A DNA stretch of 64,000 nucleotides from assembly GCA_965653375.1 (NCBI GenBank), contig CBFGZY010000007.1, forward strand, positions 2,614 to 66,613, in the 5' to 3' direction. Below, in pieces: positions 35,097-55,479 of the stretch. The notes below the pieces were generated by a model. That model was not told the DNA's origin. It worked only from the letters and a program-made list of their open reading frames with translations, and made no database searches. Both the position numbers and the translations under genes were made by a program. Every line of letters begins with the position of its first letter. The first letter of the stretch is position 1. This DNA comes from an uncultured Pseudoxanthomonas sp. (lineage in GTDB: Bacteria; Pseudomonadota; Gammaproteobacteria; Xanthomonadales; Xanthomonadaceae).

Positions 35097-35213
35097 GCCA
35101 TTTCACAATCTGGGCGCTGCAGGCCGTCAGCTTTCATGCTGCGGATGCGGCAATACTCGGATATCCGCGTCGATCGTCCTACACTGTGTTTTTCACCGCT
35201 ACGGATGATCGCC

Positions 35214-36277: not shown

Positions 36278-36966
36278 CACCTTCGTTCGAGCCGCTGTCG
36301 GACGATGCACTGTTGCTTCGCCTCGGCGACAGCATCGACGCCACGCTCAATGCGCAAGCGCATGCCATCGCATTACGACTACGCGAACAGGCCCCCTCCT
36401 GGTTGCGCGATCTGGTGCCCGCCTATGCCAGCCTGGCCGTCTTCTTCGATCCCCAACACATCGACAACGCCGATCCACACGCTCACGTGGCCGCCGCGGT
36501 AAAAGCGCTGCTGGGCACCCAGGCCATGATCACCTCACGCAATGCGGAGCCGGTAGAAATTCCTGTTTGTTACGGCGGCGAATCCGGACCCGACCTGATG
36601 GAAGCGGCGCGGCTGTGCGGTATCGGTCCCGATGAACTCATAGCGCGGCACACGGCAACGATCTATACGGTCGCGATGATTGGCTTCGCCCCCGGATTCC
36701 CCTATCTGCTGGGATTGGACGAATCACTGACGCTACCCCGATTGGATACGCCGCGCACGCGCGTGCCTGCAGGGTCGGTCGCGATCGGCGGCGCCCAGAC
36801 CGGCATCTATCCGCGTATGAGTCCCGGTGGTTGGCGCCTGTTGGGGCGAACGCCGCGGGTTCTCTTCGACGCCGCACGCGAGCCGCCATCCTTGCTTTCG
36901 CCGGGCGATCGGGTGCGCTTTGTGCCTATAGGCGCCGATGTCTTCGCGAATGAAGCCTCCCGATGA
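36274..36966 (+). CDS. pxpB: 5-oxoprolinase subunit B
   Basis: DLVPAYASL, EIPVCYGG..GPDL, GFAPGFPYL, PAGSVAIGG.QTGIYP..SPGGW. Confidence 0.93.
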   Translation: MTPSFEPLSDDALLLRLGDSIDATLNAQAHAIALRLREQAPSWLRDLVPAYASLAVFFDPQHIDNADPHAHVAAAVKALLGTQAMITSRNAEPVEIPVCYGGESGPDLMEAARLCGIGPDELIARHTATIYTVAMIGFAPGFPYLLGLDESLTLPRLDTPRTRVPAGSVAIGGAQTGIYPRMSPGGWRLLGRTPRVLFDAAREPPSLLSPGDRVRFVPIGADVFANEASR

Positions 36967-37916
36967 CTCAGTGGGAAGTGCTATCGCCCGGGTTGCAGAC
37001 GACCGTGCAAGACCATGGTCGACATGGCTGGCACCATCTCGGTGTCGCCCAGGCAGGCGCGCTGGACTTGTTTTCGTTGGAACTAGCCAATCGGCTGGTA
37101 GGCAATGAAGACGAACTTGCAGCACTCGAAATCACCCTGCACGGGCCAACGCTACGGTTGCGCCAACCTGCCCGCATCGCACTCACTGGGGCATCGATCG
37201 AAGCGTACTGGAATGGCGTCGCGCTGCCGACCGGACGCCCGGTGCAATTGCCGCCGGGCGATCTGAAGTTGGGCGGCATGCGCCACGGTGCGCGCAGCTG
37301 GCTGGCAATAGCGGGAGGATTCGACGTACCACTGGTGATGGGCAGTCGCAGCACCGATCTGCGCGGCGGTTTCGGTGGCTTGGAAGGCCGTGCGCTTCGC
37401 GCTGGCGATCGGTTGACGGCGGGCGGCGCTGTCGTTCCTGCGTTGGATACGCCACGGATCGCCAAATGGTGGATCGATGAGAGCGATATTCGGCAAGACC
37501 TGCCAATCCGTTTCGTCGCGTCTCCCGACCCCAGCGCGGATGCGCTTGGAACGCATCGATGGACCGTCAGTGTTCGCAGCGATCGTCAAGGACTGCGGCT
37601 GGAGGGACCTGCATTGACTTGTTCCAAAGGCAGCGGGATATCGGAACCCGTCGCGGTCGGCACCGTTCAACTTCCACCCGATGGCCAGCCCATCGTACTG
37701 CTGGCCGACGCGCAAACCGTCGGAGGCTATGCTCGGCTTGGCTACGTCATCAGCTGCGATCTGCCACGCCTGGCGCAGGCACGGCCCGGCTCGACACTGC
37801 ATTTCGTAGCGATCTCCGCGCCCGAGGCGCATCGGTTGGGACGGGAACATCGGCAGCAGCACGCACGCACCGCCATTGCCATCCGTCGGCAGCTGCAACA
37901 GGATTTCGGTGTTTAG
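36963..37916 (+). CDS. pxpC: 5-oxoprolinase subunit C
   Basis: TTVQD.GR.G, GA.D, S.RSDRQG.RL, G.VQLPPDGQPIVL.AD.QT.GGY. Confidence 0.93.
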   Translation: MTQWEVLSPGLQTTVQDHGRHGWHHLGVAQAGALDLFSLELANRLVGNEDELAALEITLHGPTLRLRQPARIALTGASIEAYWNGVALPTGRPVQLPPGDLKLGGMRHGARSWLAIAGGFDVPLVMGSRSTDLRGGFGGLEGRALRAGDRLTAGGAVVPALDTPRIAKWWIDESDIRQDLPIRFVASPDPSADALGTHRWTVSVRSDRQGLRLEGPALTCSKGSGISEPVAVGTVQLPPDGQPIVLLADAQTVGGYARLGYVISCDLPRLAQARPGSTLHFVAISAPEAHRLGREHRQQHARTAIAIRRQLQQDFGV

Positions 37917-38001
37917 TGGCTTCGACCGCCACGCCGTGCGGTGGCCGCCTGACCGGCAAAAAGCCGCATAATCGGCCTAACTATCTGAGTGGCTTGCCTG
38001 C

Positions 38002-38175
38002 ATGAAACGCAATTTCGTCCTGGCCGTGGTGTTGATCGTTCTTGGCGCCTTGTTTTTGTTGAACAATCTTGGCATTACGAATATCAGTCTGGGCGAGCTG
38101 ATTTCAAAGTGGTGGCCGGCGCTCCTGATCCTGGTGGGCATCAGCATGCTGCTGCGGGGCAATACCGCGAAGTAG
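38002..38175 (+). CDS. Small 57-aa two-TM membrane protein (LiaI/LiaF-TM/DUF5668-like), below the ORF-track cutoff
   Basis: Manual translation MKRNFVLAVVLIVLGALFLLNNLGITNISLGELISKWWPALLILVGISMLLRGNTAK*; two hydrophobic helices and a WP.LLI.VG motif. Confidence 0.8.
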   Translation: MKRNFVLAVVLIVLGALFLLNNLGITNISLGELISKWWPALLILVGISMLLRGNTAK

Positions 38176-38206
38176 CGGCGCAATGGCCGATAGGAAGGCA
38201 TACCCG

Positions 38207-38968
38207 ATGTCCAACGCAGCACGTATCGATTTCAATTGCGACTTGGGCGAAGGCGTTGGCGACGATGCCGCCATCCTTCCCTTCATCAGTTCCGCCAGCA
38301 TTGCCTGCGGCTTCCATGCCGGATCCCCGCAAACCATGCAGGCGGCGGTGGCATTGTGCCTGGCGAACGGTGTCGCGATCGGCGCCCACCCTGCCTTCCA
38401 GGATCGCGAGAACTTCGGTCGAACCGCGCAGGATATTTCTGCCAACGACGCTTACGCGCTCACCTTGTATCAGGTGGCCGCATTGGATGGCTTTACGCGC
38501 GCTGCCGGTGCTCGTCTGCACCACGTCAAACCCCATGGCGCGTTCTACAACCAGGCGGCGCGCGACCGCGATCTGGCCGGGGCTATCGCCACGGCTGTAC
38601 GCGATCACGACCCCGGGTTGATCCTCTACGGCTTGGCTGGCAGCGCATTGACAGCCGCGGGCGAAGCGCTCGGCTTGCAGGTAGCGCATGAAGCGTTTGC
38701 CGAACGCCGCTACGAAGCCGACGGAACCTTGACGCCGCGTAGCCTTCCCGACGCCAGCATCGAAGATGTCGCCACGGCCGCAGCGCAAGTCCGGCAGATG
38801 TTGCAGCATGGCGCGGTCATCGCGCGCACCGGCGAACGCGTACCACTGCGCGCCGACAGCATCTGCCTGCATGGCGATCGGCCCGATGCACCTGTGTTTG
38901 CGCGCGGCCTGCGGGCTGCCATCGAATCCTCCGGCTTCACTATCCAAACCATGGAGCGCACCGAATGA
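38207..38968 (+). CDS. pxpA: 5-oxoprolinase subunit A (LamB/YcsF family)
   Basis: DFNCDLGEG, SASIACGFHAG, GAHP...DRE.FGR, HVKPHGA.YN, EAFAER.Y, ICLHGD. Confidence 0.96.
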   Translation: MSNAARIDFNCDLGEGVGDDAAILPFISSASIACGFHAGSPQTMQAAVALCLANGVAIGAHPAFQDRENFGRTAQDISANDAYALTLYQVAALDGFTRAAGARLHHVKPHGAFYNQAARDRDLAGAIATAVRDHDPGLILYGLAGSALTAAGEALGLQVAHEAFAERRYEADGTLTPRSLPDASIEDVATAAAQVRQMLQHGAVIARTGERVPLRADSICLHGDRPDAPVFARGLRAAIESSGFTIQTMERTE

Positions 38969-39699
38969 ACTATTGGCCCCTGCTTGGCATCGCGGTGGTG
39001 GTCGCAGGTTTTGTGCTTCGTTTCAATCCGGTGCTGGTGGTGGTGGCCGCCGGATTGGTCAGCGGATTGCTGGCCGGCATCTCGCTGCCGGACTTGCTGG
39101 CGCTGCTGGGCAACAGTTTCATCGACAATCGGCCATTGCTGATGTTTCTGCTCACCTTGCCGGCCATCGGATTGCTGGAGCACTACGGATTGCGCGAACG
39201 TGCCCGCGAATGGATCGTCAGTTTCAAGGGCCTGACCTTGTCGCGTTTCCAGATTGCCTATCTCGGTTTACGCCAGCTGATGAGCATGGCGGGCCTGACC
39301 CATGTGGCCGGCCCTGCGCAAACGGTACGCCCGCTGGTGGCGCCCATGAGCGAAGCCGCGGCCGAGCGCACTTTGGGCGAACTGACCGAACATGACCGCG
39401 AACGCGTGCGTGCCAGCGCAGCGGCCACCGACAACGTGGGCTTGTTCTTTGGCGAGGACGTTTTCGTCGCGATCGGCGCAGTGCTGCTGATCCAAGGCTT
39501 CTACGCGCGCAACGGTATCGAACTCGAACCGCTGGCGATCGCGCTGTGGGCATTGCCTACCGCAGTAGCTGCATTCGTCATCCATGCGATCCGGTTGAAG
39601 TTGCTGCAGCGGCGGCTGGAACGCGAACATTTGGAACGCGAGCACGCTGCAAACGACGTGCCGGCCGACACGGTGGAGAGCACGAATGCTCAAGACTGA
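38965..39699 (+). CDS. DUF969-family membrane protein (putative 5-oxoproline transporter subunit)
   Basis: G..LRFNP.LVV, LP.IGLLE..GLRE, AAATDNVGLFFGED; follows pxpA. Confidence 0.88.
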   Translation: MNYWPLLGIAVVVAGFVLRFNPVLVVVAAGLVSGLLAGISLPDLLALLGNSFIDNRPLLMFLLTLPAIGLLEHYGLRERAREWIVSFKGLTLSRFQIAYLGLRQLMSMAGLTHVAGPAQTVRPLVAPMSEAAAERTLGELTEHDRERVRASAAATDNVGLFFGEDVFVAIGAVLLIQGFYARNGIELEPLAIALWALPTAVAAFVIHAIRLKLLQRRLEREHLEREHAANDVPADTVESTNAQD

Positions 39700-40654
39700 G
39701 TACCTCTTCTGGCTGATCGGCGCCTTCTTGCTGATCACAGCTTTGTTCAACCTGCGCGAACGCCGTTATGCGGCCGGTATTTTCTGGCTGGTGCTGGTAG
39801 CACCGTTCGCCTTCGGCACACAGATCCAGGCAGCGGCCAAGGCCGGCGTGCAATGGCCGGCGCAGGCAATGGGCATGGGCGTGATGGCGCTTGGCATTCT
39901 GGCAACACGCGGTCGCTTCAGCGTCGTCGCAGACACCCCACAGGCACATGCACGCCGGCAGGCGCTTTCCGACGTCCTTCGCAACAAGCTGTTCGGCCCG
40001 GCACTGGTGATTCCCTTGCTGACATTGCTGTTGTTCATTGCCAGCAAGTTTCTGCCCGGCATGGACACGTTCATGGATCCCAAGGCACTGACCTTGAGCT
40101 CGCTGGCATTGGCCAGTCTGGTGGCGCTGGCTGCCGCATTGTGGGTGACGCGCGCTCGGCCGTTGGAATCGCTGGGCCAGGGCCGGCGGTTGCTGGATTC
40201 GCTGGGCTGGGCGGTGCTGCTGCCGATGGTGCTGGCCACACTGGGCGGCGTGTTCGCCGCGACCGGCGTGGGCGAAGCCATCGCCAGATTGGTGGGTTAC
40301 GTGATTCCCGTCGAAAACCGCATGGCTTGCCTGCTGGCGTTCTCGCTGGGCATGGTGTTGTTCACCATCATCATGGGCAATGCGTTTGCCGCATTCCCGG
40401 TGATGATGGCCGGTATCGGCCTGCCACTACTGATCCAGAAGCACGGCGCGGATCCGGCGGTATTGGGCGCCATTGGCATGTTGACCGGATACTGCGGCAC
40501 CTTGCTGACGCCGATGGCCGCCAACTTCAACATCGTGCCGGCGGTGCTGCTGGAATTGAAAGACCAGTACGGCGTGATCCGCATGCAGGCGGCCACTGCG
40601 TTCTGGCTGATGGGTGTCAATGTGCTGCTGATGGCTTGGCTGTGCTTTCGATGA
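39686..40654 (+). CDS. DUF979-family membrane protein (putative 5-oxoproline transporter subunit)
   Basis: [45 protein letters not shown]. Confidence 0.88.
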
Positions 40655-40691
40655 GACAAGCGCTTCTGATTCACAGGGCGAGATACTGCCT

Positions 40692-41345
40692 ATGAAAGCT
40701 CCTCCTACCGTATTGCTAACCGGCTTCGCGCCCTTCGGCGGTGAAACCACGAATCCCAGTTGGGAGGCTGTTGTTGCGCTGGACGGCCGCCGTATCCGGG
40801 GGCACCGCGTGGTCGCCCGCCAGTTGTCGGTAACTTTCGGCGAATCGTTGAAAGCTCTCCGCGCGGCGCTTCGGGAAACCTCGCCTTCATTGGTCATTTG
40901 CGTGGGCCAGGCCGGTGGGCGCACGCAGTTGTCGCTGGAGCGCGTCGCCATCAATGTCGATGACGCACGCATTGCAGACAATGCAGGCTATCAACCCATC
41001 GACACACCGATTGCCGAAAACGGGCCTGCAGCGTATTTCAGCACGCTGCCCATCAAGGCACTACTGGCTGGCTTGCGCGACGCCGGCTATCCCGTCGAGG
41101 TTTCGCAGACTGCGGGCACTTACGTGTGCAACCATGTTTTCTACGGCTTGATGCATGCGCTGCGCAACAAACGCGCCGTGCGCGGCGGCTTCATCCACAT
41201 TCCGTATTCGCCCGTGCAAGCGGCCGCCCATCCAGGCGCAGCCAGCTTGTCGACGGAAGTCGTGACCGAAGCGTTACGCTTGGCCATTCGTATTTCGCTG
41301 ACGACGGCCGTCGACAGCAAGCTCGCCGCAGGAGCGGAACATTGA
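40692..41345 (+). CDS. pcp: Pyroglutamyl-peptidase I
   Basis: [47 protein letters not shown]. Confidence 0.97.
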
Positions 41346-41534: not shown

Positions 41535-42101
41535 TCAGGTACGCGGCAGCGTCACGCCGACCTGGCCCTGATACTTGCCGCCGCGATCCTTGTAGCTGGT
41601 TTCGCAAATCTCGTCGGATTCGAAGAACAGCATCTGCGCCACGCCTTCGTTGGCGTATATGCGTGCCGGCAGCGGCGTGGTGTTGCTGAACTCCAGCGTC
41701 ACGTGACCTTCCCATTCCGGTTCCAACGGGGTGACGTTGACGATGATGCCGCAGCGCGCGTAGGTGCTCTTGCCCAGGCAGACCACCAGCGTGCTGCGGG
41801 GAATGCGGAAATATTCCACCGTCCGCGCCAAGGCAAAGCTGTTGGGCGGGATGATGCACACGTCCGACTCCACATCGACGAAGCTGCCGCTGTCGAAATG
41901 CTTGGGATCGACGATGGTCGAGTTGATGTTGGTAAAGACCTTGAACTCGCGCGAGCAGCGCACGTCATAGCCGTAGCTGGAGGTGCCGTAGCTGACGATG
42001 CGTTCGCCGTTGGCTTGCTTGACCTGGCCGGGCTCGTACGGCTCGATCATCTTGTGCTGCTCGGCCATGCGGCGGATCCAAAGGTCACTCTTGATGCTCA
42101 T
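41535..42101 (-). CDS. dcd: dCTP deaminase
   Basis: [41 protein letters not shown]. Confidence 0.98.
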
Positions 42102-42200
42102 GCGGCAGTTCCTGTTCCTGAAATGGGGAAAACGTGTGGCTGATTGACGTCTCGCCGCGCCGCGCAAGAAGCGCGGAGATGGGCGCGAAAGTCCGCAATT

Positions 42201-42259: not shown

Positions 42260-43306
42260 TCAGACCAGCGAGGAAGCGATAGGCATCGCGGCACGCGGCC
42301 GCATCGCCAGATGGGCCGCCATCATCCGGGCCGTATGGCGATAAGCCTGGGCAACGGCCGAATCCGGGGCCGCCACGACCACCGGCTGGCCGGCATCGCC
42401 ATGTTCGCGGATGGCGATGTCCAACGGCAGCGAACCCAGCAACGGCACCCCGTACTGCGCCGCCATCCGCTGGCCGCCACCTTCGCCGAACAGATGTTCG
42501 ACATGGCCGCAGTTGGAGCAGGTATGCACGGCCATGTTCTCCACGATACCCAGCACCGGAACTTCGACTTTCTCGAACATCTTCAGTGCCTTCCTGGCAT
42601 CAAGTGTCGCAATGTCTTGCGGCGTGGTGACGATGACCGCGCCTGCGACAGGTATCTTCTGCGCCAGGGTCAGCTGGATATCGCCCGTGCCCGGCGGCAG
42701 ATCGATCAGCAAGTAGTCCAGATCGCCCCATAGCGTATCGGTGAATAGTTGGGTCAACGCCGAAGTCGCCATCGGCCCGCGCCAGATCATCGGCGTGTCT
42801 TGATCCACCAAGAAGCCGATCGACATCGCTTCCACCCCGAAGGCTCGCATCGGCTCGATGGACTTGTTGTCCGGGCTGTCGGGTCGCCCGCTCAGCCCCA
42901 GCATGGTCGGCACGCTGGGTCCGTACACGTCCGCGTCCAGCACCCCGACTTTCGCGCCCTCGGCCTTCAGTGCCAGCGCCAGATTGACCGCGGTAGTCGA
43001 CTTCCCCACCCCGCCCTTGCCGGAGCCGATGGCGATGACGTTACGGACCCGGGGCAGTGGCGAGAGATTGGGCTGGACAGCATGGGATACGACGCGAAAA
43101 TCCAGCAGGAATTCCGCCAACTGGGTTCCCTCCGCGGCCAGCAGCGCTCCGACCTGGCGCTCGATGTCCTGCTTCAGCCCTAGAGCCGGGTAGCCCAGAG
43201 TCAGTCGGACCTGAGTGGCGGTCTTCGGCCCCTGCACTTGGAAATGGGCCTTCGTATCCCCCAACCGTACCCCCTCTGGGGCCTCTATTTGTGACAGCTG
43301 TTGCAC
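42260..43306 (-). CDS. apbC: Fe-S cluster carrier ATPase ApbC/Mrp (start uncertain)
   Basis: [38 protein letters not shown]...C..CG. Confidence 0.95.
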
Positions 43307-43503
43307 TAAATTGCCTTTGGATTGGATATTTTTGATAACTACGTCACATTTTCAAATGTAACAGTCGTAACATGGGTTGTGCTATGGGCGCAGTCGTTAA
43401 TGTCGTGTTAACGTCAGACCACAGGACATTTGACGTGCGGCAGGGACTGACGGACCAGTCCAACGGGGGCCGCATCACCTTCTAGTTTAGGGGATTCACA
43501 ACT
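43289..43503 (+). promoter_or_regulatory. Upstream regulatory cassette of TBDR-1 (copy 1 of a duplicated ~215-bp element)
   Basis: Aligns block-for-block with 46476-46691; includes the identical 24-mer TTTCAAATGTAACAGTCGTAACAT and GTTAA-N7-TTAAC. Confidence 0.85.
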
Positions 43504-46353
43504 ATGTCATTTCGGAATATGACTGCGCCCAAGCGTAGTCGATTGAGCGCGGCCATGTTTGCCGTATTGCTGCTGCCCGTCGCCGGGGTCACGCTGGCCC
43601 AAGAGGCTGACGACGCCACTCCGGATACCAGTAATCAAGCTTCCAAGCCGACTGCCACGCTGGACAAAGTCACCGTCACCGGCTCGCGCATCAAACGCGC
43701 CGAGATCGAAGGCCCTTCACCCGTAACCGTGATCACCTCGGAACAGATCGAGCGTGAAGGCTTCAATACCGTCTACGACGCGCTGAATACCTTGACTCAG
43801 GCGTCGGGCTCCACGCAGAACGAAGTCTTCCAAGGCGGATTCACCCCCAACGCCAGCGTCATCAACCTTCGCGGCTTGGGCCCGGGGCGTACGCTGCTGC
43901 TGATCAACGGCCGCCGTGCCGCCGACTATCCGTTGCCTTACAACGGCCAGAGCAACTTCGCTAATTTCGGCAACATTCCTGCCGCGGCGGTCGATCGGAT
44001 CGAACTGCTCGCAGGCGGCGCATCCGCAATCTATGGCTCGGACGCGGTGGCGGGCGTCGTCAACGTCATCCTGAAGACCAACTACGAAGGCGACTTGATC
44101 AAGTTGCGTGGCAGCACGACGAGCCAAGGTGGACGCGACCGCGGCGACTTGCAGTGGATCGGCGGCAAGACCGGCGACAAGTGGAGCGTGACCTACGCTT
44201 TCGAATACTTCGCCAGCGAACCGCTGTACGCCTATCAGCGCGACTTCATGGACTCCAGCCTGGACAATCCATTGCCGCCCGATTACGTGGGCATCCAACC
44301 GATCGGTACCATGCGCGTGCGCCGTCGCACCGGCTCCACTGCTGGTTCCTATTTCGCTCCGCCAGCCGGCGCCTGCGAGCAACTCGGCGACGAGTGGGTA
44401 CGCTGGAACTTCCGAAGTGCTAACACGGCTGGTGTCATCACCAACCTGGGCCAGGCCTGCGGCACGTTCAACGACGTGGGTTACCAAACCATCGACAACG
44501 GTAACAACGACCTGTCGGGCTACGCCTATGGCACCTTCGAATTCGACAACGGCATGCAGGGGTGGGCCAGCTTGCAAGCGTGGAAGTCGGAAGCAAAGTA
44601 CGGCGCAGGCACCCAGTTCTGGGGCGGCCGCACAACCGGCGCTTTGTGGTTCGACCAAGGCTTCAACAACCTGGTCGACGCACAGCGCGTCTTCACGCCA
44701 CAGGAAGCCGGCGGCGTCGAGAAGCTGCTTGCGAAAAACGACGAGCGATCTTTTGACCTGGCCGTCGGACTGCGTGGTCAGTTCGGCGAGCGTTTCGATT
44801 GGGACTTGACGCTGTCCCGCGCCGAGTACGACGTCGAGACCGATCGTCCTCGCCTGCTGTCCACAGCCGTCAACGACTACTTCCTGGGTCCGCAATTGGG
44901 CACCCGCGTCGTCGGTGGCGTGACGTACCCGGTATACAGGCTAAATCAGAGCCGGTACTACTCGGCACTGACTCCTGAGCAGTTCGCCTCGCTTAATACT
45001 GTCGTCAAAACGAAGGCCGAATCCTACGTAAACCAAGGCAGCTTTGTAGTGTCTGGCGATCTGTTCGAACTGCCGGCCGGCCCGTTGGGTTTCGCCGCAG
45101 TACTGGAAGCCTCTCAGCAAGAATACGACTTAACGGCCGATCCGCGGATCCTGCCCGACTATACGGGTACGGATCGCCCCTACAACCTCACCGGCACCGG
45201 TGGCGGTGGTCAACGCGATCGTTATGCCCTGGGTGTTGAGTTCTCGGTGCCGATCCTGGAATCGTTGAAAGGCAGCATCGCCGGCCGTTTTGACAAATAC
45301 GACGACGTAACCGCCGTGGACGATGCAAAAACCTGGAATGCCGGCCTGGAATGGCGTCCCGTAGACAACCTGCTGTTCCGCGGCTCCTATTCCACCAGCT
45401 TCCGCGCACCCGACATGCACTACGTGTTCGCTGAACGCAGCGGCTCTTTCAGTGCCATCCTCGATACTCGTCGCTGCCTGGAAAGCGGCAGAACCACCGC
45501 GCAATGTCCGTCGACCGACGTGGTCACCAACTACACTGCCTTCGGCGTTCGTCAAGGCACGACCGATCTGACCGAAGAAACCGGTAACTCGTGGACGGCC
45601 GGCATCGTGTGGGACATCATCGATGGCTTGTCGGTCAGCGCTGACTACTACGAAATCGAACTGGAAGATGCGGTTGCCGATATCACTACCGCATACATCC
45701 TGGATGCTGAAGCAGGTTGCGTTACCGGCCTAACGCGCACTCGTCAGCCTTTTACCTTAGGCGCACCGGGTTCGGCTTTCTGTAACGACATGATCTCGCG
45801 GGTTTCCCGCCTCAGCGCACCTGGCACTCCGAACGACGGCCAGATCACCGAAATCCGTCGTGGTCCCATCAACCGTGCTTACCAGAGTGTCTCGGGCATC
45901 GACGCCACGCTGGACTATCGCCTCGATACCGATCGCCTGGGTGATTTCCGCATCCAGGTTGGCTACTCGCACACACTCGAGCAGAAGACGTCGCAGTTCA
46001 AAGGCGATCCGATTCTCGACTATCGCGATGATCTGACCAACTTCGATTTCCGTAGCCGTATCCGTACAACGGCGACATGGACAAAGGACGACTGGCAAGC
46101 ATCGGTCTTTATGCTCCGATACGGCAGCCTACCGAACTGGCAGGAAACCGGCCGCATCGCTCCTTACTTCATCTGGAATACAAGCGTTGGCAAGCAGATA
46201 ACCGAAGATATGCAGGTCAACCTGTACGTCAATAACCTGTTCGACAAAACTCATCCGCGAGACGATGGGTTCAACAGCTATCCGTACTTCTGGCGGGCCT
46301 ACAGCCCGATCGGTCGTGAGATCGCTCTGGAACTCCAGTACAAGTTCAACTGA
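43504..46353 (+). CDS. TonB-dependent receptor 1
   Basis: Signal peptide; TonB box LDKVTVTGSRIKR; plug NLRGLG.GRTL.LINGRR and IELLAGGASAIYGSDAVAGVVNVI; C-terminal beta-strand LQYKFN. Confidence 0.96.
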   Translation: MSFRNMTAPKRSRLSAAMFAVLLLPVAGVTLAQEADDATPDTSNQASKPTATLDKVTVTGSRIKRAEIEGPSPVTVITSEQIEREGFNTVYDALNTLTQASGSTQNEVFQGGFTPNASVINLRGLGPGRTLLLINGRRAADYPLPYNGQSNFANFGNIPAAAVDRIELLAGGASAIYGSDAVAGVVNVILKTNYEGDLIKLRGSTTSQGGRDRGDLQWIGGKTGDKWSVTYAFEYFASEPLYAYQRDFMDSSLDNPLPPDYVGIQPIGTMRVRRRTGSTAGSYFAPPAGACEQLGDEWVRWNFRSANTAGVITNLGQACGTFNDVGYQTIDNGNNDLSGYAYGTFEFDNGMQGWASLQAWKSEAKYGAGTQFWGGRTTGALWFDQGFNNLVDAQRVFTPQEAGGVEKLLAKNDERSFDLAVGLRGQFGERFDWDLTLSRAEYDVETDRPRLLSTAVNDYFLGPQLGTRVVGGVTYPVYRLNQSRYYSALTPEQFASLNTVVKTKAESYVNQGSFVVSGDLFELPAGPLGFAAVLEASQQEYDLTADPRILPDYTGTDRPYNLTGTGGGGQRDRYALGVEFSVPILESLKGSIAGRFDKYDDVTAVDDAKTWNAGLEWRPVDNLLFRGSYSTSFRAPDMHYVFAERSGSFSAILDTRRCLESGRTTAQCPSTDVVTNYTAFGVRQGTTDLTEETGNSWTAGIVWDIIDGLSVSADYYEIELEDAVADITTAYILDAEAGCVTGLTRTRQPFTLGAPGSAFCNDMISRVSRLSAPGTPNDGQITEIRRGPINRAYQSVSGIDATLDYRLDTDRLGDFRIQVGYSHTLEQKTSQFKGDPILDYRDDLTNFDFRSRIRTTATWTKDDWQASVFMLRYGSLPNWQETGRIAPYFIWNTSVGKQITEDMQVNLYVNNLFDKTHPRDDGFNSYPYFWRAYSPIGREIALELQYKFN

Positions 46354-46377
46354 TCGTTGTCAGTGGAGTCACACCCA

Positions 46378-46403
46378 AAAAGCCCGGCGCAAGCCGGGCT
46401 TTT
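46378..46403 (+). terminator. Intrinsic terminator after TBDR-1 (bidirectional form)
   Basis: AAAAGCCCGGC-GCAA-GCCGGGCTTTT. Confidence 0.9.
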
Positions 46404-46475
46404 CGATTACAAGGGCGACAACGATCTGGCAACGACATCTGGCAATGCACGCAGAAAGCCTCGTGACGGCTTTTA

Positions 46476-46691
46476 TTGTGACGTAGACCTCACTAAACCG
46501 CGGTCATTTGGGCGATTTTTGAGACTTTCATCACAATTTCAAATGTAACAGTCGTAACATCACCTTGTGGTATGGGCGCGGTCGTTAATGTCATGTTAAC
46601 GTCGGTCCACAGGACATTTGACCGTGCGGTGGGACCAAAGGACGGGTCCTGGGGGCCGCATCACATCGGATCGTTTTAGGGGATTCACCAC
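46476..46691 (+). promoter_or_regulatory. Upstream regulatory cassette of TBDR-2 (copy 2)
   Basis: Paralogous to 43289-43503, with conserved spacing and covarying hairpins. Confidence 0.85.
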
Positions 46692-49487
<2,796 letters not shown>

Positions 49488-49507
49488 TTCTGTTTTTGCG
49501 TGACATG

Positions 49508-49535
49508 GACCCGGCGGAAACGCCGGGTCTTTTTT
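49508..49535 (+). terminator. Intrinsic terminator after TBDR-2
   Basis: GACCCGGCG-GAAA-CGCCGGGTC followed by TTTTTT. Confidence 0.92.
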
Positions 49536-49760
49536 GCGTACCGCTTGGCGGCTTCCTTCGATGGTCAAGACCATCTCAAGATACACAAGACTCATCGCCA
49601 TTTAGGAAGTTGCAGAGCATCAAGCAAACAATCAACTCTGACCCAGCCTTGGCCAGGCTCATGTCAGGGAACCCAGCATTTTGAGTGCATGGTTAGTTCG
49701 GGGGTCCGCCCTGAGGTAATGACGACCAAGCATCACGACCACTTTGCATGAGGAAAATCG

Positions 49761-51761
49761 ATGAAGCATTCGCTGCCAGCCACGTTCTTGGCCGTCGCCG
49801 GAGTATTCGCACTCTCAAGCGCCGGCGCTGCAACCTTGCAGCCTGTTTCGGACTTTGTAAGTCATCCTACCTACAGCGCCGTCAAGATATCGCCGACCGG
49901 CGAATACTTGGCAATGACGGTCGACCGTGGGGATCAGGATGTTCTCACCGTCCTTCGGACAAGCGACCTGAAGCTGATCAAAGTCAACCAGCTGCCTGAC
50001 AAGAAAAGCGTTGGTTCATTCTATTGGACAAGCCCCAATCGGTTGATGTTCAACGCCATCAAGAAAATCGGCGGTTTTGCCCAGCCGTTCGCCACAGGCG
50101 AGTGGTTCGCCGTGAATGCCGATGGCACACAGCCACGTCCGCTGATCTTCTACGGAACACGAGACGCCACCCAGCGCGGGAAGACCGTGGGTGCGGAACG
50201 CTTTACATTGTTGGACACTTTGCAGGACGACGATGAGAACGTCATCATGCAAGTCACTTCACCACGGTCCTCGGAGGGCGTAGGCACCGAAGTGGTCCGC
50301 ATGGATACGCTCAACGGCCGTCGTACATCGCTCGGGCGCGCGCCGAAGGAAAACTGCAGCATTGCGCTGGATGCCGCCAAGCAGCCTCGCTTCGCCGTGT
50401 GCTCTTCCAGCAAGGACGAGGAAGGCGAGTTCGATGAGCGAAGCGAACTCTATCGGCGAGACGACAAGGGCTGGACGCTGGTCAATGCATCCAAATCGGA
50501 CGGCAAACATCTTGATGTCGTCACCACCACCAGAAATGGCACCGTCTATGCCAGCCAAGACGACGGAAAGTCGCCGCCTGCCATCGGCACATTGGATACC
50601 GCAACCGGCGCGTTCACTGCCCTGTTCCAGGATCCAGTCGCCGAAGTGTCCAACTACATCTGGTCGACGGATGAAACCACGCTCATCGGCGTGGTGACCG
50701 AGGCCGGTGCGCCTGCCGTCAAGCTGATCGATGAAGCCCACCCTGATGCGGAGATCTACGCCTCGCTGGCCAGTGCCTTCGAGGGGCAGATGGTGGATTT
50801 CTCCAGCTATACGCAGGACGGCAAGCGAGTGGTTGTCAGCGTATACAGCGACAGCAATCCCGGCGAGTTGTATCTGTACGACAGGGAGACAGGCAAGGCG
50901 CGCTTCCTGATGAGCAACCGGCCGCAGCTGGACAAGAAGCGCATGGCTTCGGTCAAACCCTTCAACTTCACCGCACGCGACGGCAAGCGCGTGTATGGAT
51001 ACCTGACGATTCCCCAAGGATCCAGCGGCAAGAACCTGCCCATGATCGTCAATCCCCATGGCGGCCCCATCGGTCCTCGTGACGACTGGGCGTTCAACTG
51101 GGAAACCCAACTGCTGGCTAGCCGCGGATACGCGGTCCTGCAGGTGAACTACCGCGGTTCCGGCGGGTACGGCAAGGCATTCCGGGACGCCGGTCATGGC
51201 CAGTGGGGCCAGGGCATCCAGAACGACATCATCGATGCCACCCAGTGGGCCATCAAGAACGGTTACGCGGACGACGAACGAATCTGCATCTACGGCGGTA
51301 GTTTTGGAGGCTACTCTTCGTTGATGGCACCGATTCGTGCACCTGGCCTATTCAAGTGCACTTTCGGGTACGTCGGTGTCTATGACATCGACATGATGTT
51401 CAAGAAAGGGGACATCCCGGAAAACGAACCCGGCCAGCGCTTTCTGCGTCGTACCCATGGCACCGATACAAAGACATGGGCCGAAAACTCACCCGCTCGC
51501 CGCGCAGCCGAAGTCAAGATCCCGGTATACCTGGCGGCAGGCGCGCGCGACGTCCGTACCCCGCCGGAACAAACCGAGTTGATGAACAAAGCGCTGATCG
51601 CTGCGGGCAATTCTCCGGAAGGCATGCTCATTCAATCCGGTGAAATGCACGGCTTTTACGACGTTGCCAATCGCGTGAACCTTTACACGACGATGTTGGA
51701 CTTCTTCGCACGCCACATCGGGGGCGAAGTCACCGTGGGCAACCCCAGCAAGACCGAATAA
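49761..51761 (+). CDS. Secreted S9-family (prolyl oligopeptidase-like) peptidase
   Basis: Signal peptide; N-terminal propeller; PHGGP, NYRGSGGYG, nucleophile GGSFGG, D (RDVRT), H (EMHGF). Confidence 0.93.
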   Translation: MKHSLPATFLAVAGVFALSSAGAATLQPVSDFVSHPTYSAVKISPTGEYLAMTVDRGDQDVLTVLRTSDLKLIKVNQLPDKKSVGSFYWTSPNRLMFNAIKKIGGFAQPFATGEWFAVNADGTQPRPLIFYGTRDATQRGKTVGAERFTLLDTLQDDDENVIMQVTSPRSSEGVGTEVVRMDTLNGRRTSLGRAPKENCSIALDAAKQPRFAVCSSSKDEEGEFDERSELYRRDDKGWTLVNASKSDGKHLDVVTTTRNGTVYASQDDGKSPPAIGTLDTATGAFTALFQDPVAEVSNYIWSTDETTLIGVVTEAGAPAVKLIDEAHPDAEIYASLASAFEGQMVDFSSYTQDGKRVVVSVYSDSNPGELYLYDRETGKARFLMSNRPQLDKKRMASVKPFNFTARDGKRVYGYLTIPQGSSGKNLPMIVNPHGGPIGPRDDWAFNWETQLLASRGYAVLQVNYRGSGGYGKAFRDAGHGQWGQGIQNDIIDATQWAIKNGYADDERICIYGGSFGGYSSLMAPIRAPGLFKCTFGYVGVYDIDMMFKKGDIPENEPGQRFLRRTHGTDTKTWAENSPARRAAEVKIPVYLAAGARDVRTPPEQTELMNKALIAAGNSPEGMLIQSGEMHGFYDVANRVNLYTTMLDFFARHIGGEVTVGNPSKTE

Positions 51762-51778
51762 GCGGCTACGCGTCGCAG

Positions 51779-51805
51779 GAATGGCCGGCTCAACGCCGGC
51801 CATTC
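51779..51805. terminator. Hairpin downstream of the S9 peptidase (weak U-tract)
   Basis: 11-bp stem GAATGGCCGGC/GCCGGCCATTC. Confidence 0.6.
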
Positions 51806-51906
51806 TTATGCACCATTCTTTGGCAGCGTGACTTCCGGTAGAGGCTATATCCGCTAGCTACCTACACAATCAGATCCCATCCACCGGCCGGTCATAGGAA
51901 GGATCC

Positions 51907-52737
51907 ATGGACACATTTCGTACAGCCGTCCGCACACTGATCATGCTGGGCATCTTGCTCGTCCCCGCTGCTGCGCTTGCGCAAAAATCATCCGCATCTG
52001 CGCCGCCGCCCGACCCCACAAAAGATCCTTTGATGCTGTCGGCAGGATTCCTGACCGCACATCCGGACCTGCGATATCGCCTGCTGGGCCTGGATGAGAT
52101 GAAGCAGGGCAAGCATGAGGACGCCTTCCGTTTCTTCCAGCGGGCCGCCTTCTACGCGGACAAACCATCGCAAGGCATGGTGGCCGAAATGCTGTGGAAT
52201 GGCCAAGGAACCGAACGCAATCCATCGCTGGCTTATGCATGGATGGATCTGGCGGCCGAACGCGGATATGCCGGTTTCCTCGGTCTGCGCGAACGCTATT
52301 GGAATGCGCTGACACCGGAGCAGCGGACACGCGCACTGGAGGAGGGCAAAGCGATCTACGCCAAATATGGCGATGCCGCCGCGCAACCCCGACTTGCGAC
52401 CGTCCTGCGACGGGAGCAGCGCAGGCTGACAGGCAGCCGAACGGGCTTTGCCGGAAACGTGCAGATCTACATCCCGGGCCCGGGCGGGTTCGAACAGATC
52501 GACGGGTCCAAGTTCTACGACGAGCGCTACTGGGACCCCAAGCAGTACCAGGCTTGGCATGACAGCATCTGGATGAAGCCCCGTGTCGGTCGCGTCAGCG
52601 TGGGCGAAATGGAGCAGGTCGGCGAAGGTGAGAAACCCGGCTCGCGCATCCCGGCGACAGCGCCACAGACCGACGTTGTGGAACCTACTACCCCAAACCG
52701 GGATGAGGACGGCCTGGGCACCCGGAAAGACGACTGA
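51907..52737 (+). CDS. Exported Sel1-like repeat protein of unknown function
   Basis: Signal peptide; AAFYADKPSQ..VAEMLWNGQG...N..LAYAW..LAAERG is SLR-like. Confidence 0.75.
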   Translation: MDTFRTAVRTLIMLGILLVPAAALAQKSSASAPPPDPTKDPLMLSAGFLTAHPDLRYRLLGLDEMKQGKHEDAFRFFQRAAFYADKPSQGMVAEMLWNGQGTERNPSLAYAWMDLAAERGYAGFLGLRERYWNALTPEQRTRALEEGKAIYAKYGDAAAQPRLATVLRREQRRLTGSRTGFAGNVQIYIPGPGGFEQIDGSKFYDERYWDPKQYQAWHDSIWMKPRVGRVSVGEMEQVGEGEKPGSRIPATAPQTDVVEPTTPNRDEDGLGTRKDD

Positions 52738-52834
52738 AGCCCTTCCTCCATACCCCACCGAATGCGGTATAAAGAACCCATCCCGCCGGCCTTCCCGCCG
52801 GGTGGGGCTCAACCAACATCCCTGGGAGGGGAAT

Positions 52835-53272
52835 ATGCGCAAGACACTGATGGCCGCCTGGCTGGCCGCCCCGCTGATGGCTCTGTCGATGTCGGCTGCC
52901 GCCGCCGATGCGGTGGGCACGTGGAAGACCATCGACAGCGACACCGGCAAGGAAAAATCCATTGTCGAAATCACCCGCACCCCCAGCGGCGTCCTGAGCG
53001 GCCGGATCGTCAAGCTGCTGAACCCCAGCAAGCCCAACCCGGTCTGCGACAAGTGCAAGGACGACCGCAAGAACAAGCCCATCACCGGCATGGAAATCAT
53101 CCGTGGCATGAAGGCCGACGGCACCGACGCCTGGAGCGGCGGCACGATCCTCAAGCCCGATGAAGGCAAGGTCTACAAGTCCAAGATGAAGCTGATCGAT
53201 GGCGGCAAGAAGCTGGAAGTCTCCGGCTGCATCGCCTTCATCTGCAAATCGCAGACCTGGGTCCGCCAGTAA
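52835..53272 (+). CDS. DUF2147-family secreted protein
   Basis: Signal peptide; G.WKTID..TGK.KSIV.I, G.I..P..GK.Y, L.V.GC...IC..QTW.R. Confidence 0.85.
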   Translation: MRKTLMAAWLAAPLMALSMSAAAADAVGTWKTIDSDTGKEKSIVEITRTPSGVLSGRIVKLLNPSKPNPVCDKCKDDRKNKPITGMEIIRGMKADGTDAWSGGTILKPDEGKVYKSKMKLIDGGKKLEVSGCIAFICKSQTWVRQ

Positions 53273-53370
53273 TCCCCTGAAACCAGCACGTCCATTGGCC
53301 CGGCACCGCCGGGCCAATGTGTTTTTGGAGCCCCATGCGATAATCGGCGTTCCCCCGCACGACACTCGCC

Positions 53371-55479
53371 ATGAGCCGCACTGCACTCGTCACCACTGCC
53401 CTGCCCTACGCCAACGGGCCACTCCACCTTGGCCACCTGGTCGGCTATATCCAGGCCGACATCTGGGTGCGGGCCAGGCGGTTGGCGGGAGACACCACCT
53501 ACTTCGTCTGCGCCGACGACACCCACGGCACGCCGATCATGCTGGCGGCGGAAAAGGCCGCGGTGACGCCGGAGGCCTTCATTGCCAATGTCCAGGCCAG
53601 CCATGAGCGCGACTTCGCCGCCTTTGGCGTGGACTTCGATCACTACGATTCCACTCATTCGCGCACCAACCGCGAACTGACCGAAGCGTTCTACGCCAAG
53701 CTGGATGCCGGTGGCCATATCGCCAAGCGCAACGTGGCGCAGTTCTACGACCCGGCCAAAGGCATGTTCCTGCCGGATCGCTACATCAAAGGCATCTGCC
53801 CCAACTGTGGATCGGCCGACCAATACGGCGACAACTGCGAGGTCTGCGGCGCCACCTATGCCCCGACCGACCTGAAGGAGCCGAAGTCGGTGCTGTCCGG
53901 CGCCACGCCGGAAATCCGCGATTCGGAGCATTACTTCTTCGAGGTGGGTGGTTTTCAGTCGTTCCTTCGCCAATGGCTGGCTGGCGATGTCGCCCTGGCC
54001 GGCGTCAAGGCCAAGTTGATGGAGTGGCTGGATGCCGAAGGCGGCCTGCGCGCATGGGATATCTCGCGCGATGCACCTTACTTCGGCTTCGAGATTCCCG
54101 GCGCCCCAGGCAAATATTTTTATGTGTGGCTGGACGCGCCCATCGGCTATCTCAGTAGCTTCAAGGCACTGTGCCAACGCAACGGCCTGGATTTCGAATC
54201 GCATCTCGTGGCCGACACGCAGACCGAACTGCACCACTTCATCGGCAAGGACATCGTCAATTTCCACGGTCTGTTCTGGCCCGCCGTGCTGCATGGCGTG
54301 GGCTACCGCGCGCCGACTCGCCTGCACGTCAACGGCTATCTGATGGTCGATGGCGCCAAGATGTCCAAATCGCGCGGCACCTTCGTGATGGCGCGGACCT
54401 ATCTGGACGTGGGTCTGGAGCCGGAAGCGCTGCGCTACTACTACGCCGCCAAATCCTCCGGCGGGGTCGATGACCTGGATCTCAACCTCGGTGATTTCAC
54501 CGCGCGCGTGAATGCCGACCTGGTAGGCAAGTTCGTGAATCTGGCCAGCCGCTGTGCGGGATTCATCGACAAGCGTTTCGATGGGAAGTTGGCCTCGGCG
54601 TTGCCGGATTCCGCTACCTATACTCGTTTTGTTGCCGCATTGGCGCCGATCCGCGAAGCCTACGAACGCAATGATCCAGCCTCTGCCATCCGGCAGACCA
54701 TGGCGCTTGCCGATGAAGCCAATCGCTATATCGACGACAAGAAGCCGTGGGTGATCGCAAAGGAACTCGATAACGGCCGCTCAGGCGCCGACGCCGAACT
54801 GCAGGCGGTGTGCACGCAGGGCTTGAACCTGTTCCGCGTATTGTCCGCTGCGCTCAAACCCGTGTTGCCGCGCACCGCCGCACAAGCAGAAGAATTTCTG
54901 GCCGCACCGGTCTACGCCTGGCGCGACTTGGACGCTCCGCTGCTCGCACACAGCATCAAGCCGTATTCGCCGCTATTCACCCGTATCGACCCGAAACTGA
55001 TCGACGCCATGACCGAAGCTTCCAAAGACACCCTTGCTCCCGCTGCCTCGCCGAACGCAGGAGCGACGCCAAACTCCGCTGGGAAAGCGGTCGCGACTGA
55101 CCGGCGCTCGCATGCCAGCGCCACTCCTACAAAGGAAGCTGCCGGCGGTTTGATCGGCATCGACGATTTCGCCAAGCTCGACCTGCGTATCGGCAAGGTG
55201 CTGGCATGCGAATTCGTTGAAGGCTCGGACAAACTGCTCCGCTTCGAACTGGATGCCGGCGAATTGGGCAAGCGGCAGATCTTTTCCGGCATCCGCGCCA
55301 GCTACGGCGAACCGGAAAAACTGATAGGCCGCAGCGTGGTATTCATCGCCAATCTGGCGCCACGCAAGATGCGCTTCGGTATCAGCGAAGGAATGATCCT
55401 GTCGGCCGGTTTCGATGGCGGCGCGCTGGCTCTGCTGAACGCCGACAGCGGCGCCCAGGCGGGTATGCCGGTACGCTGA
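53371..55479 (+). CDS. metG: Methionine--tRNA ligase
   Basis: TALPYANGPLHLGH, CADDTHG, Zn knuckle, KMSKS, C-terminal tRNA-binding domain (DFAKLDLRIG). Confidence 0.99.
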   Translation: MSRTALVTTALPYANGPLHLGHLVGYIQADIWVRARRLAGDTTYFVCADDTHGTPIMLAAEKAAVTPEAFIANVQASHERDFAAFGVDFDHYDSTHSRTNRELTEAFYAKLDAGGHIAKRNVAQFYDPAKGMFLPDRYIKGICPNCGSADQYGDNCEVCGATYAPTDLKEPKSVLSGATPEIRDSEHYFFEVGGFQSFLRQWLAGDVALAGVKAKLMEWLDAEGGLRAWDISRDAPYFGFEIPGAPGKYFYVWLDAPIGYLSSFKALCQRNGLDFESHLVADTQTELHHFIGKDIVNFHGLFWPAVLHGVGYRAPTRLHVNGYLMVDGAKMSKSRGTFVMARTYLDVGLEPEALRYYYAAKSSGGVDDLDLNLGDFTARVNADLVGKFVNLASRCAGFIDKRFDGKLASALPDSATYTRFVAALAPIREAYERNDPASAIRQTMALADEANRYIDDKKPWVIAKELDNGRSGADAELQAVCTQGLNLFRVLSAALKPVLPRTAAQAEEFLAAPVYAWRDLDAPLLAHSIKPYSPLFTRIDPKLIDAMTEASKDTLAPAASPNAGATPNSAGKAVATDRRSHASATPTKEAAGGLIGIDDFAKLDLRIGKVLACEFVEGSDKLLRFELDAGELGKRQIFSGIRASYGEPEKLIGRSVVFIANLAPRKMRFGISEGMILSAGFDGGALALLNADSGAQAGMPVR

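Follow-up and report, generated by a model that had tools for sequence, protein, structure and literature searches.

Carbohydrate utilization (CUT) loci of Xanthomonas are defined by a TonB-dependent receptor (TBDR) encoded together with an inner-membrane transporter, a degradative enzyme and a regulator, and isopeptidase-type lasso-peptide clusters combine a TBDR with an AtxE2-type S9 isopeptidase and FecIR. Proteolytic and predatory bacteria of soil and water draw much of their carbon and nitrogen from oligopeptides that exceed the size limit of porins; to our knowledge, the TonB-dependent import of such peptides has been demonstrated only for RagAB of the Bacteroidota, and for Proteobacteria it has been inferred. 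The RagAB system of Porphyromonas gingivalis, which is of the SusCD type, imports oligopeptides in a TonB-dependent manner (bioRxiv 10.1101/755678; PMC11817032). In the proteolytic predator Wenzhouxiangella AB-CW3, highly expressed TBDRs have been proposed as peptide importers, a proposal that rests on proteomics with peptone, casein and prey cells and is itself an inference (PMC7691419); the idea of TBDR-mediated peptide import is thus not new. Here we analyze a 64,000-nucleotide stretch of DNA from an uncultured Pseudoxanthomonas sp. (assembly GCA_965653375.1; hereafter the window), in which two paralogous TBDR genes and the genes of an exported S9 peptidase, an exported Sel1-repeat protein and an exported DUF2147 protein lie between apbC and metG. 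An earlier note on this DNA had suggested, by analogy to carbohydrate utilization loci, that the locus may import oligopeptides and trim them in the periplasm.

By every sequence test available to us, the two receptors are not of the iron, B12 or sugar type, and the association of such receptors with S9 peptidases, as judged from gene order, is recurrent but facultative. We tentatively favor peptide uptake as the function of the locus, while putting its probability slightly below even. The genes form a loose neighborhood and not an operon. Of the peptide-import reading, the lack of iron, B12 or sugar signatures and the recurrent linkage to peptidases speak for it; what has to be given up is a coherent locus of the CUT or polysaccharide utilization (PUL) type, as the interval contains neither an inner-membrane transporter nor a regulator and is divided into separate transcription units.

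Gene identities in the window come from Pfam and NCBIfam profile searches of its proteins, and signal peptides were judged by inspection of the translations. The two receptor genes, TBDR1 (43504-46353, + strand, 949 aa) and TBDR2 (46692-49487, + strand, 931 aa), encode paralogs that are 52% identical end to end, and in both of them the plug domain (PF07715; 80 and 93 bits) and the barrel domain (PF00593; 105 and 106 bits) score above cut-off, in agreement with the earlier note. The signal peptides (...VTLA/QEAD... in TBDR1, ...ATAFA/QEEQ... in TBDR2) are followed by the putative TonB boxes TLDKVTVTG and TLDKVVVTG, respectively, all read by inspection of the sequence. Both proteins end in ...YKFN, one residue beyond the phenylalanine (46351-46353 and 49485-49487), and the consensus of their clade ends in EYKFx, as opposed to the usual terminal aromatic residue of outer-membrane barrels. 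They are also about 200 aa longer than typical siderophore receptors.

NCBIfam models of siderophore, haem and B12 receptors matched only the plug, at 60-105 bits compared with cut-offs of 220-1200. The best match to a Fur box upstream of all genes had 8-10 mismatches of 19, which equals random expectation; Pho and FNR boxes better than random were not found either, and no Rfam family scored better than E=0.27 when riboswitches or known leader RNAs were sought upstream of the TBDRs. With the models below cut-off, no Fur box and no riboswitch, the two proteins do not fall into the class of Fur-regulated siderophore, haem or B12 receptors. A SusC/RagA identity was rejected as well (TIGR04056, 22 and 38 bits; cut-off 368), and Pfam detected no gene for a SusD-like lipoprotein in the interval. 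Nor are the receptors FecA-type transducers: Pfam found no N-terminal signaling extension in either protein, and their neighbors are apbC and the other TBDR, with no gene for an extracytoplasmic function (ECF) sigma factor of the FecI type or for FecR. In line with the earlier note, searches of the apbC-metG interval with Pfam and NCBIfam revealed no glycosidase, siderophore or Fur-type gene. For this family-wide clade as a whole, the database name "iron complex outer membrane receptor" is probably incorrect.

The exported S9 (S9C-like) oligopeptidase (49761-51761, + strand, 666 aa) carries its catalytic residues in the motifs GGS514FGG, ARD597 and EMH630, in the triad order Ser-Asp-His, and matches PF00326 with 165 bits (cut-off 22.6). 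The claim of a secreted S9 peptidase with an intact triad (Ser514, Asp597, His630) is thereby confirmed. Its nearest solved relatives, 7c72, 5l8s, 3azo and 8wt1, are amino-acyl or aminopeptidases of the S9C-like kind, and its catalytic domain aligns to the first three of these structures. Pfam gives no match for residues 25-400, which do align with S9 paralogs over the full length. Orthologs with 60-93% identity occupy the same site in relatives. An identity as the lasso isopeptidase Atxe2 was rejected (NF033523, 61 bits against a cut-off of 400; no lasso biosynthesis genes at the locus). Elsewhere in the same genome, a paralog 40% identical to the window enzyme belongs to a cluster on contig C47 (7885-16120) that consists of S9, a POT permease (PF00854, - strand), an OPT permease (PF03169) and a PD40-type S9 protein, with no TBDR. 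This clustering ties the S9 subfamily to peptide assimilation, and the two permeases would supply the inner-membrane step that is missing from the window.

The linkage between receptor and peptidase extends beyond the window. An ortholog of the S9 gene follows the receptor array in Pseudoxanthomonas, Luteimonas, Marilutibacter, Cognatiluteimonas, Stenotrophomonas acidaminiphila and two further genomes of the same family (G056 of genus g16 and G486 of genus g17). In the unrelated Permianibacter, assigned by NCBI to the Pseudomonadaceae, a TBDR 50% identical to the window receptors lies in a cluster of the order TetR-TonB-x-S9-TBDR-S9, described as encoding exported or envelope proteins throughout; its S9 enzymes are 36-40% identical to that of the window over their full length, the distance that separates the latter from its in-genome paralogs. 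A second genome of the Permianibacter lineage has TBDR-S9. On a low-GC contig (L127), the TBDR is followed by a protein that has no Pfam match and aligns with the N-terminal (propeller) region of S9. Peptidases of other families adjoin further members of the clade: genomes of the Lysobacter brunescens type contain, away from this site, clusters of M4 peptidase, BBE oxidase, amine oxidase, two TBDRs and a beta-lactamase-family protein, and in S. acidaminiphila an amine oxidase and two M13 peptidases are encoded after TBDR-S9-Sel1.

In a crude count, an adjacent peptide-bond hydrolase was present in about 8/25 distinct contexts of the receptor clade, which is suggestive, not decisive. The neighborhood analysis of this clade for peptidases that the earlier note had called for shows a linkage that recurs, Permianibacter included, and is facultative; since the clade is almost confined to one family, the number of independent contexts is small. 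With three such S9 genes among about 3900 genes, the chance that one flanks a given TBDR is roughly 0.15%; on that estimate, coincidence is an unlikely cause of two or three independent adjacencies, bearing in mind that the sample is small and the estimate uncorrected for kinship.

In E. coli K-12, mrp/apbC and metG are divergent neighbors, as the earlier note had it, and are 131 bp apart. In the window, apbC/mrp (42260-43306, - strand; Fe-S cluster carrier; NF008669, 410 bits against a cut-off of 348; PF10609) forms the left anchor of the slot and is divergent from TBDR1, while metG (53371-55479, + strand; methionine-tRNA ligase; NF001100, 893 bits) forms the right anchor. Inspecting 30 apbC loci across the order, we found metG directly opposite apbC in 15/24 loci of other families, with DUF2147 in that place in 2/24. 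In the family of the window (Lysobacteraceae), the gene opposite apbC is a TBDR, and the sole genome of this family in which apbC and metG are directly adjacent is a reduced genome of 2 Mb. The adjacency of the two genes elsewhere, together with the TBDR in Lysobacteraceae, indicates from gene order that the TBDR array, which is characteristic of this family, was inserted between the two members of an ancient divergent pair.

For a wider comparison, 78 loci were fetched with the clade alignment and more through whole-genome searches, of which 48 intervals were complete from apbC to metG; as the loci were retrieved through the TBDR itself, all slot frequencies are conditional on TBDR presence. 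Genes in the fetched loci were identified with a caller based on G+C content at third codon positions, tblastn, and Pfam for selected neighbors. Among the 48 complete intervals, 36 contain one TBDR, nine contain two and three contain three; one further locus has four. S9 is present in 19/48 and Sel1 in 15/48. In Arenimonas, a TBDR is all that separates apbC from metG, and in the Lysobacter form the TBDR is followed by one or two DUF2147 genes. Pseudoxanthomonas, Luteimonas and Marilutibacter share the form of one or more TBDRs followed by S9, Sel1 and DUF2147; Pseudoxanthomonas mexicana DSM 17121 carries the version with a single TBDR. In S. acidaminiphila, the amine oxidase gene (- strand) and the M13-M13 pair come after apbC and TBDR-S9-Sel1, and metG lies elsewhere. 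A very close relative of the window organism (GCA_964253145.1) has two TBDRs, an opposite-strand tetratricopeptide repeat (TPR)-sulfotransferase gene and S9. The receptor clade comprises thousands of metagenomic relatives, yet it is nearly confined to Lysobacteraceae: in an even sample of 400 Gammaproteobacteria, six genomes had a match at E<=1e-120, four of the six in this family. No member of the Rhodanobacteraceae, the dssB product of Rhodanobacter R179 being a TonB-dependent transporter (TBDT) described in that genus (PMC11928319), was among the matches to the clade.

The receptor genes are set apart from their neighbors by their control regions. Each is preceded by a promoter/leader cassette of about 180 bp (cassette 1, 43307-43503, + strand, read from the sequence; cassette 2, 46480-46691, + strand, recognized as its duplicate by sequence comparison), and the two copies are 89% identical over a 92-bp core and share the same order of boxes. 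Cassette 1 contains a half-conserved CRP/Clp-like box (TGATAACTACGTCACA), GTAACA repeats, TGnTATGGG and GTTAAnnnnnnGTTAACGTC; in the order common to both copies, TGnTATGGG is followed by GTTAA-N6-GTTAACGTC. In the leader, a hairpin (GTGCGGC...GCCGCAT) encloses a GGAC...GTCC stem, and the ribosome-binding site is AGGGGA. TBDR1 is followed by a terminator hairpin (46378-46404, + strand; AGCCCGGC-GCAA-GCCGGGCT, then TTT) that was read from the sequence and that the hairpin scan placed on the opposite strand, and TBDR2 by a Rho-independent terminator found in the scan (49507-49536, + strand; GGACCCGGCGGAAACGCCGGGTCT, then TTTTTT). Both hairpins are rich in G+C. The claim that each TBDR has its own promoter cassette and terminator therefore holds. 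The terminator after the last TBDR is kept in seven genomes (the relatives L031, L033, L034, L036, L051 and L135 among them), beyond which, apart from a ribosome-binding site, no conserved sequence was found upstream of S9 in relatives.

Neither did a search of the 4.3-Mb assembly yield a third copy of the cassette, so that no wider regulon is defined; as it occurs nowhere else in the genome, S9, Sel1 and DUF2147 are not under a shared cassette and, as read from the sequence, are governed by a different promoter from the TBDRs upstream. A G+C-rich hairpin of 11 bp with a weak T-tract after S9 (51779-51805, + strand; read from the sequence and not among the hairpin-scan results) is possibly a leaky terminator, and the terminator between DUF2147 and metG (53293-53327, + strand) has a 12-bp stem with nine G-C pairs, then TGTTTTTGG. 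The most likely transcription units are TBDR1, TBDR2, S9(-Sel1-DUF2147), and metG with the genes that follow; TBDR1 and TBDR2 are probably co-regulated with each other and not visibly with their neighbors.

In relatives of the same genus, the cassette stands ahead of the apbC-adjacent TBDR, and its exact motifs are confined to close Pseudoxanthomonas relatives. The CRP/Clp-like box is a perfect TGTGA-N6-TCACA in two of these (L032, L036) and degenerate in the window, where its two mismatches make it not significant by itself, the support coming from the perfect copies at the same position in relatives. The leader, with its GGA motifs and the AGGGGA site, looks like a target of the RsmA/CsrA type. 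Together, box and leader suggest global control (by Clp and/or an RsmA-type regulator) and not a substrate-specific one, which, speculatively, would fit a general scavenging function. A further CRP-like palindrome with one mismatch (TGTCAGTGGAGTCACA; 46358-46373) lies between the stop codon of TBDR1 and its terminator and may be due to chance.

As comparison of sequences shows, TBDR content changes rapidly between species. The closest sampled relative, Pseudoxanthomonas sp. CCNWLY206-1, is 96% identical to the window in apbC, 93% in S9, 90% in Sel1 and 91% in metG, and has a single TBDR that is 53-55% identical to either receptor of the window. TBDR1 has orthologs (77-84% identity) in Pseudoxanthomonas sp. 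LH2527, Lysobacter sp. Root916 and S. acidaminiphila, and the flanks of these genomes do not exceed that level of similarity to the window. For TBDR2, the fetched genomes yielded no ortholog of more than 57% identity. In a FastTree tree of 114 sequences, in which some branches, that of TBDR2 among them, are long, TBDR1 and TBDR2 are placed apart, in two well-supported subclades with 54 and 42 rows, and arrays in other genomes mix members of these subclades with a third, more divergent group.

The remaining genes of the interval encode exported proteins as well. On inspection, all five proteins (TBDR1, TBDR2, S9, Sel1 and DUF2147) have Sec-type signal peptides, and all five genes are on the + strand, which bears out the co-orientation reported earlier. 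For the exported Sel1-repeat protein (51907-52737, + strand, 276 aa), the Sel1 assignment is marginal (PF08238, 32.3 bits against a cut-off of 30.7), with one repeat stretch above cut-off and weak matches to solved Sel1-like repeat proteins (E 4e-5 to 5e-3). When present, its gene always follows S9 (15/19 S9-bearing intervals), and the protein is likely a partner of the peptidase.

DUF2147 has a different affiliation. The exported protein (52835-53272, + strand, 145 aa; PF09917, 110 bits) is secreted as claimed, once its start is corrected to the ATG at 52835 (MRKTLMAAWLAAPLMALSMSAAA/AD), which matches 60 homologs; the mechanical open reading frame (52583-53272) is over-long. An AlphaFold model built with a 35-sequence alignment (predicted local distance difference test, pLDDT, 88) gave the Helicobacter pylori lipocalin HP1028 (4inn) as its best Foldseek match (template modeling score, TM, 0.72; E 5.8e-7), the sequence-profile match to 4inn being E 0.015, so that the predicted structure is a lipocalin/calycin fold; it contains a conserved CxxC. 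Proteins with this domain have been described as lipocalin-like and proposed as hopanoid-associated lipid carriers (bioRxiv 10.1101/2025.07.29.667474). DUF2147 is present in 43/48 intervals and keeps its place beside metG whatever lies upstream (L112, L131), and it is the gene next to apbC in two TBDR-less loci of other families, whose flanks end short of metG. Because of this constant position on the metG side and the TBDR-less cases, DUF2147 is probably independent of the receptors, and its inclusion in the receptor locus, as the earlier note had proposed, is not upheld. Tandem diverged pairs of DUF2147 genes occur upstream of metG in Lysobacter-type genomes (L059, L064, L072, L074, L075, L078, L080, L082, L089, L095, L100, L103, L126, L131).

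Opposite-strand TPR-sulfotransferase genes are found in 5/48 intervals, with none in the window. Such genes occur in or beside arrays of the clade at L047:16034-17686(-), L032:10273-11886, L085:13628-15202(-), L126:12838-14436(-) and L119:3457-5475, and also in L055; L047 has another between pcp and dcd, and the enzymes are predicted to be cytoplasmic. In the window, dcd (41535-42167, - strand) lies to the left of the array beside apbC, and rnfB comes next after metG on the + strand. Just upstream of dcd-apbC, at about 35000-41345, are pxpB-pxpC-pxpA (5-oxoprolinase), genes for DUF969/DUF979 membrane proteins and a pyroglutamyl-peptidase I gene (pcp, 40692-41345), the extent of the pxp cluster being drawn from synteny with L047 (1529-6268). 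The cluster lies 2-8 kb away from the receptor genes, shows synteny between Lysobacter and Pseudoxanthomonas, and resembles a salvage module for pyroglutamyl peptides and 5-oxoproline.

How these genes could act together may be pictured as follows. In Lysobacteraceae, the slot that splits the ancestral divergent apbC-metG pair holds 1-4 tandem nutrient-type transporters of about 940 aa with rapid turnover. Energized by TonB, these receptors would let into the periplasm those oligopeptides or peptide-like compounds that cannot pass porins because of their size; the S9 enzyme, whose predicted propeller would admit only short peptides, would shorten them there, perhaps with the Sel1 protein; and the products would be taken up by POT and OPT permeases, whose genes lie elsewhere in the genome. 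The substrate, the periplasmic location of S9 and the functional coupling between the genes are what we infer in this scheme.

Several observations weigh against peptide uptake, and many of them would be expected if only synteny linked these genes, that is, if the TBDRs imported another scarce nutrient (a glycan, a glycopeptide, or an unknown organic or metal complex) and S9-Sel1 and DUF2147 were unrelated exported housekeeping proteins inherited alongside in one family. We hold this explanation to be possible, though doubtful. The interval contains, by Pfam and NCBIfam, no inner-membrane peptide transporter, regulator or second peptidase, and in every relative a conserved terminator separates the TBDR from S9, which lacks the TBDR cassette, so that the genes are separate transcription units. 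S9 is absent from 29/48 intervals in which a TBDR is retained, and most Lysobacter-type loci lack both S9 and Sel1, which are hence dispensable there. In another family of the order (f11), an S9 gene lies beside apbC with no TBDR between apbC and metG; the S9 proteins in question, encoded directly downstream of apbC (L172:2-1228, L176:2787-3914), are 30-33% identical to that of the window. No TBDR gene lies within 10 kb of any of ten S9 paralogs in relatives, and in the Permianibacter lineage 5/7 TBDR contexts are without S9. Moreover, S9-adjacent TBDRs are scattered over at least three subclades of the receptor tree, with 13 label changes, at least 11 of which are forced by supported branches; S9 is thus anchored to the site beside the last receptor and not to one receptor orthogroup, and the scatter fits such positional anchoring as well as cooperation across the clade. 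Other contexts point to different substrates or signals. Seven clade members have upstream FecI/FecR-type genes (L090, L092, L093, L113, L116, L121, L128; Pfam-confirmed in L090 and L092, read by eye in L113, L116, L121 and L128), of which L090 and L092 also adjoin a metallophosphoesterase and L090 a multicopper oxidase, and still others adjoin a tyrosinase, a radical-SAM enzyme or a histidine kinase. In the genome of the window, a TBDR paralog with 41% identity lies with a Tat-exported Asparaginase_2 protein, a LacI regulator and a second TBDR of 1074 aa (contig C4:122743-132381, L141), in an arrangement reminiscent of the N-glycan/N-acetylglucosamine (GlcNAc) clusters of Xanthomonas; loci of this type may be dedicated to glycopeptides, GlcNAc-Asn or N-glycans. 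Similar arrangements of Asparaginase_2-like, CutC-like and TBDR genes, recognized from N-terminal sequences only, occur in G441 (L144) and G422 (L139). A more distant paralog (33-35% identical), coupled to FecI/FecR, is encoded two genes from a fused protein of Peptidase_S51 (cyanophycinase-like) and Asparaginase_2 (isoaspartyl-peptidase-like) on contig C9 (51782-58982, L142), a candidate locus for the TonB-dependent utilization of cyanophycin or beta-Asp peptides, and a related TBDR in G274 (L138) likewise adjoins an S51 protein. Distant paralogs linked to Asparaginase_2 and LacI, or to FecIR, indicate that the broad TBDR family is not peptide-specific. To this are added the DUF2147 genes beside apbC in TBDR-less loci of other families, and the fact that nearly all S9-linked cases belong to one family and are not phylogenetically independent. 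What synteny does not readily account for is the fact that in Permianibacter members of this TBDR clade and of this S9 subfamily are again neighbors, in surroundings that are entirely different and include a dedicated TonB, the M4 or M13 peptidases next to other clade members, and the low flanking probability per TBDR, rough as that estimate is.

Other rivals concern the nature of the ligand. That the receptors import a specific modified or structured peptide (RiPP-like, i.e., resembling ribosomally synthesized and post-translationally modified peptides, or sulfated, signaling or bacteriocin-like), which S9 would linearize or inactivate in the manner of isopeptidase-type lasso-peptide clusters, strikes us as quite improbable: TPR-sulfotransferase genes in the slot of close relatives and beside other clade members, the weak resemblance of S9 to the Atxe2 model, the FecI/FecR-coupled transducers within the clade and a turnover that fits a receptor for variable ligands or toxins all point this way, but the Atxe2 match remains at 61 bits compared with the cut-off of 400, Pfam and NCBIfam identified no lasso or other RiPP biosynthesis genes at the locus, and the window has neither a sulfotransferase nor FecIR. 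Uptake of iron, haem or siderophores, with S9 as an accessory, is what the automatic database names imply ("iron complex outer membrane receptor"), and the plug does give partial matches to siderophore, haem and B12 receptor models; we nevertheless give this very little credence, as those matches are limited to the plug and far below cut-off, no Fur box better than random precedes any gene, the receptors have the additional length described above, and no siderophore, haem-utilization, ATP-binding cassette (ABC) transporter or periplasmic binding protein (PBP) genes are found at the locus. Equally remote appears the uptake of a hydrophobic small molecule with DUF2147 as the periplasmic carrier of the receptor cargo. 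It would explain why DUF2147, with its match to the lipocalin HP1028 and the proposed role of such genes in carrying hopanoid-associated lipids (bioRxiv 10.1101/2025.07.29.667474), directly follows the TBDR in most Lysobacter-type loci, often in two tandem copies; yet DUF2147 stays by metG despite intervening genes, adjoins apbC in two TBDR-less loci outside the family, and is missing in Arenimonas, which keeps the receptor. Peptide uptake, supported by the recurrent linkage to peptidases and by receptors that resemble no iron, B12 or sugar type, thus remains the function that we tentatively favor.

A more far-reaching version of peptide uptake, which we regard as unlikely, is that the slot is a cassette-exchange site for surface-exposed peptide importers. 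Strains and genera would then exchange TBDR alleles and copy number (1-4) through recombination, with the conserved promoter/leader, the coding region of signal peptide, TonB box and plug, which is near-invariant, and the conserved terminator serving as homology arms. If true, such exchange would diversify the peptides that are scavenged or allow escape from phages or bacteriocins that use the receptor, while trimming in the periplasm would be a shared step, carried out by the anchored S9-Sel1 pair; the slot would then be a proteobacterial analog of ragAB allelic diversity.

Whichever substrate is imported, the locus offers a small testable system, with two receptors under one recognizable cassette, one exported S9 enzyme, and natural variants that have 1-4 receptors and retain or lack the peptidase. 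Whether TBDTs of Proteobacteria import peptides, what sets their specificity and why such receptors diversify so fast at a fixed chromosomal site are questions that it could answer. In the literature, we found no paper that treats this TBDR clade or the pairing of TBDR and S9 genes in Xanthomonadales, and no description of a fixed apbC-metG slot with 1-4 exchanged receptors, private cassette copies and an anchored S9-Sel1 pair.

Compared with known systems, the locus resembles CUT loci in placing a large non-iron xanthomonad TBDR beside an exported hydrolase that would act on imported polymer fragments, in a TBDR-rich genome. Unlike in CUT loci, however, the hydrolase is an S9 peptidase and not a glycosidase or another carbohydrate-active enzyme (CAZyme), the locus encodes neither an inner-membrane transporter nor a regulator, its genes are transcribed as separate units, and receptors occur in 1-4 copies at a fixed chromosomal slot. 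With lasso isopeptidase clusters it shares the proteobacterial pairing of a TBDR with an S9-family enzyme, and some members of the TBDR clade are accompanied by FecI/FecR, but the S9 protein of the window is not Atxe2 and neither lasso genes nor FecIR are present. RagAB differs in its SusD/RagB lipoprotein, which has no counterpart in the window, in the SusC/RagA model that the window receptors fail to match (22-38 bits against 368), and in its barrel family and lineage, the window belonging to the Gammaproteobacteria; what the two have in common is the proposed TonB-dependent import of oligopeptides and, in the four ragAB alleles at one locus, a likeness to the TBDR turnover seen here. The TBDRs of Wenzhouxiangella, an organism related to Xanthomonadales, are by description species-specific and rapidly diversifying as well.

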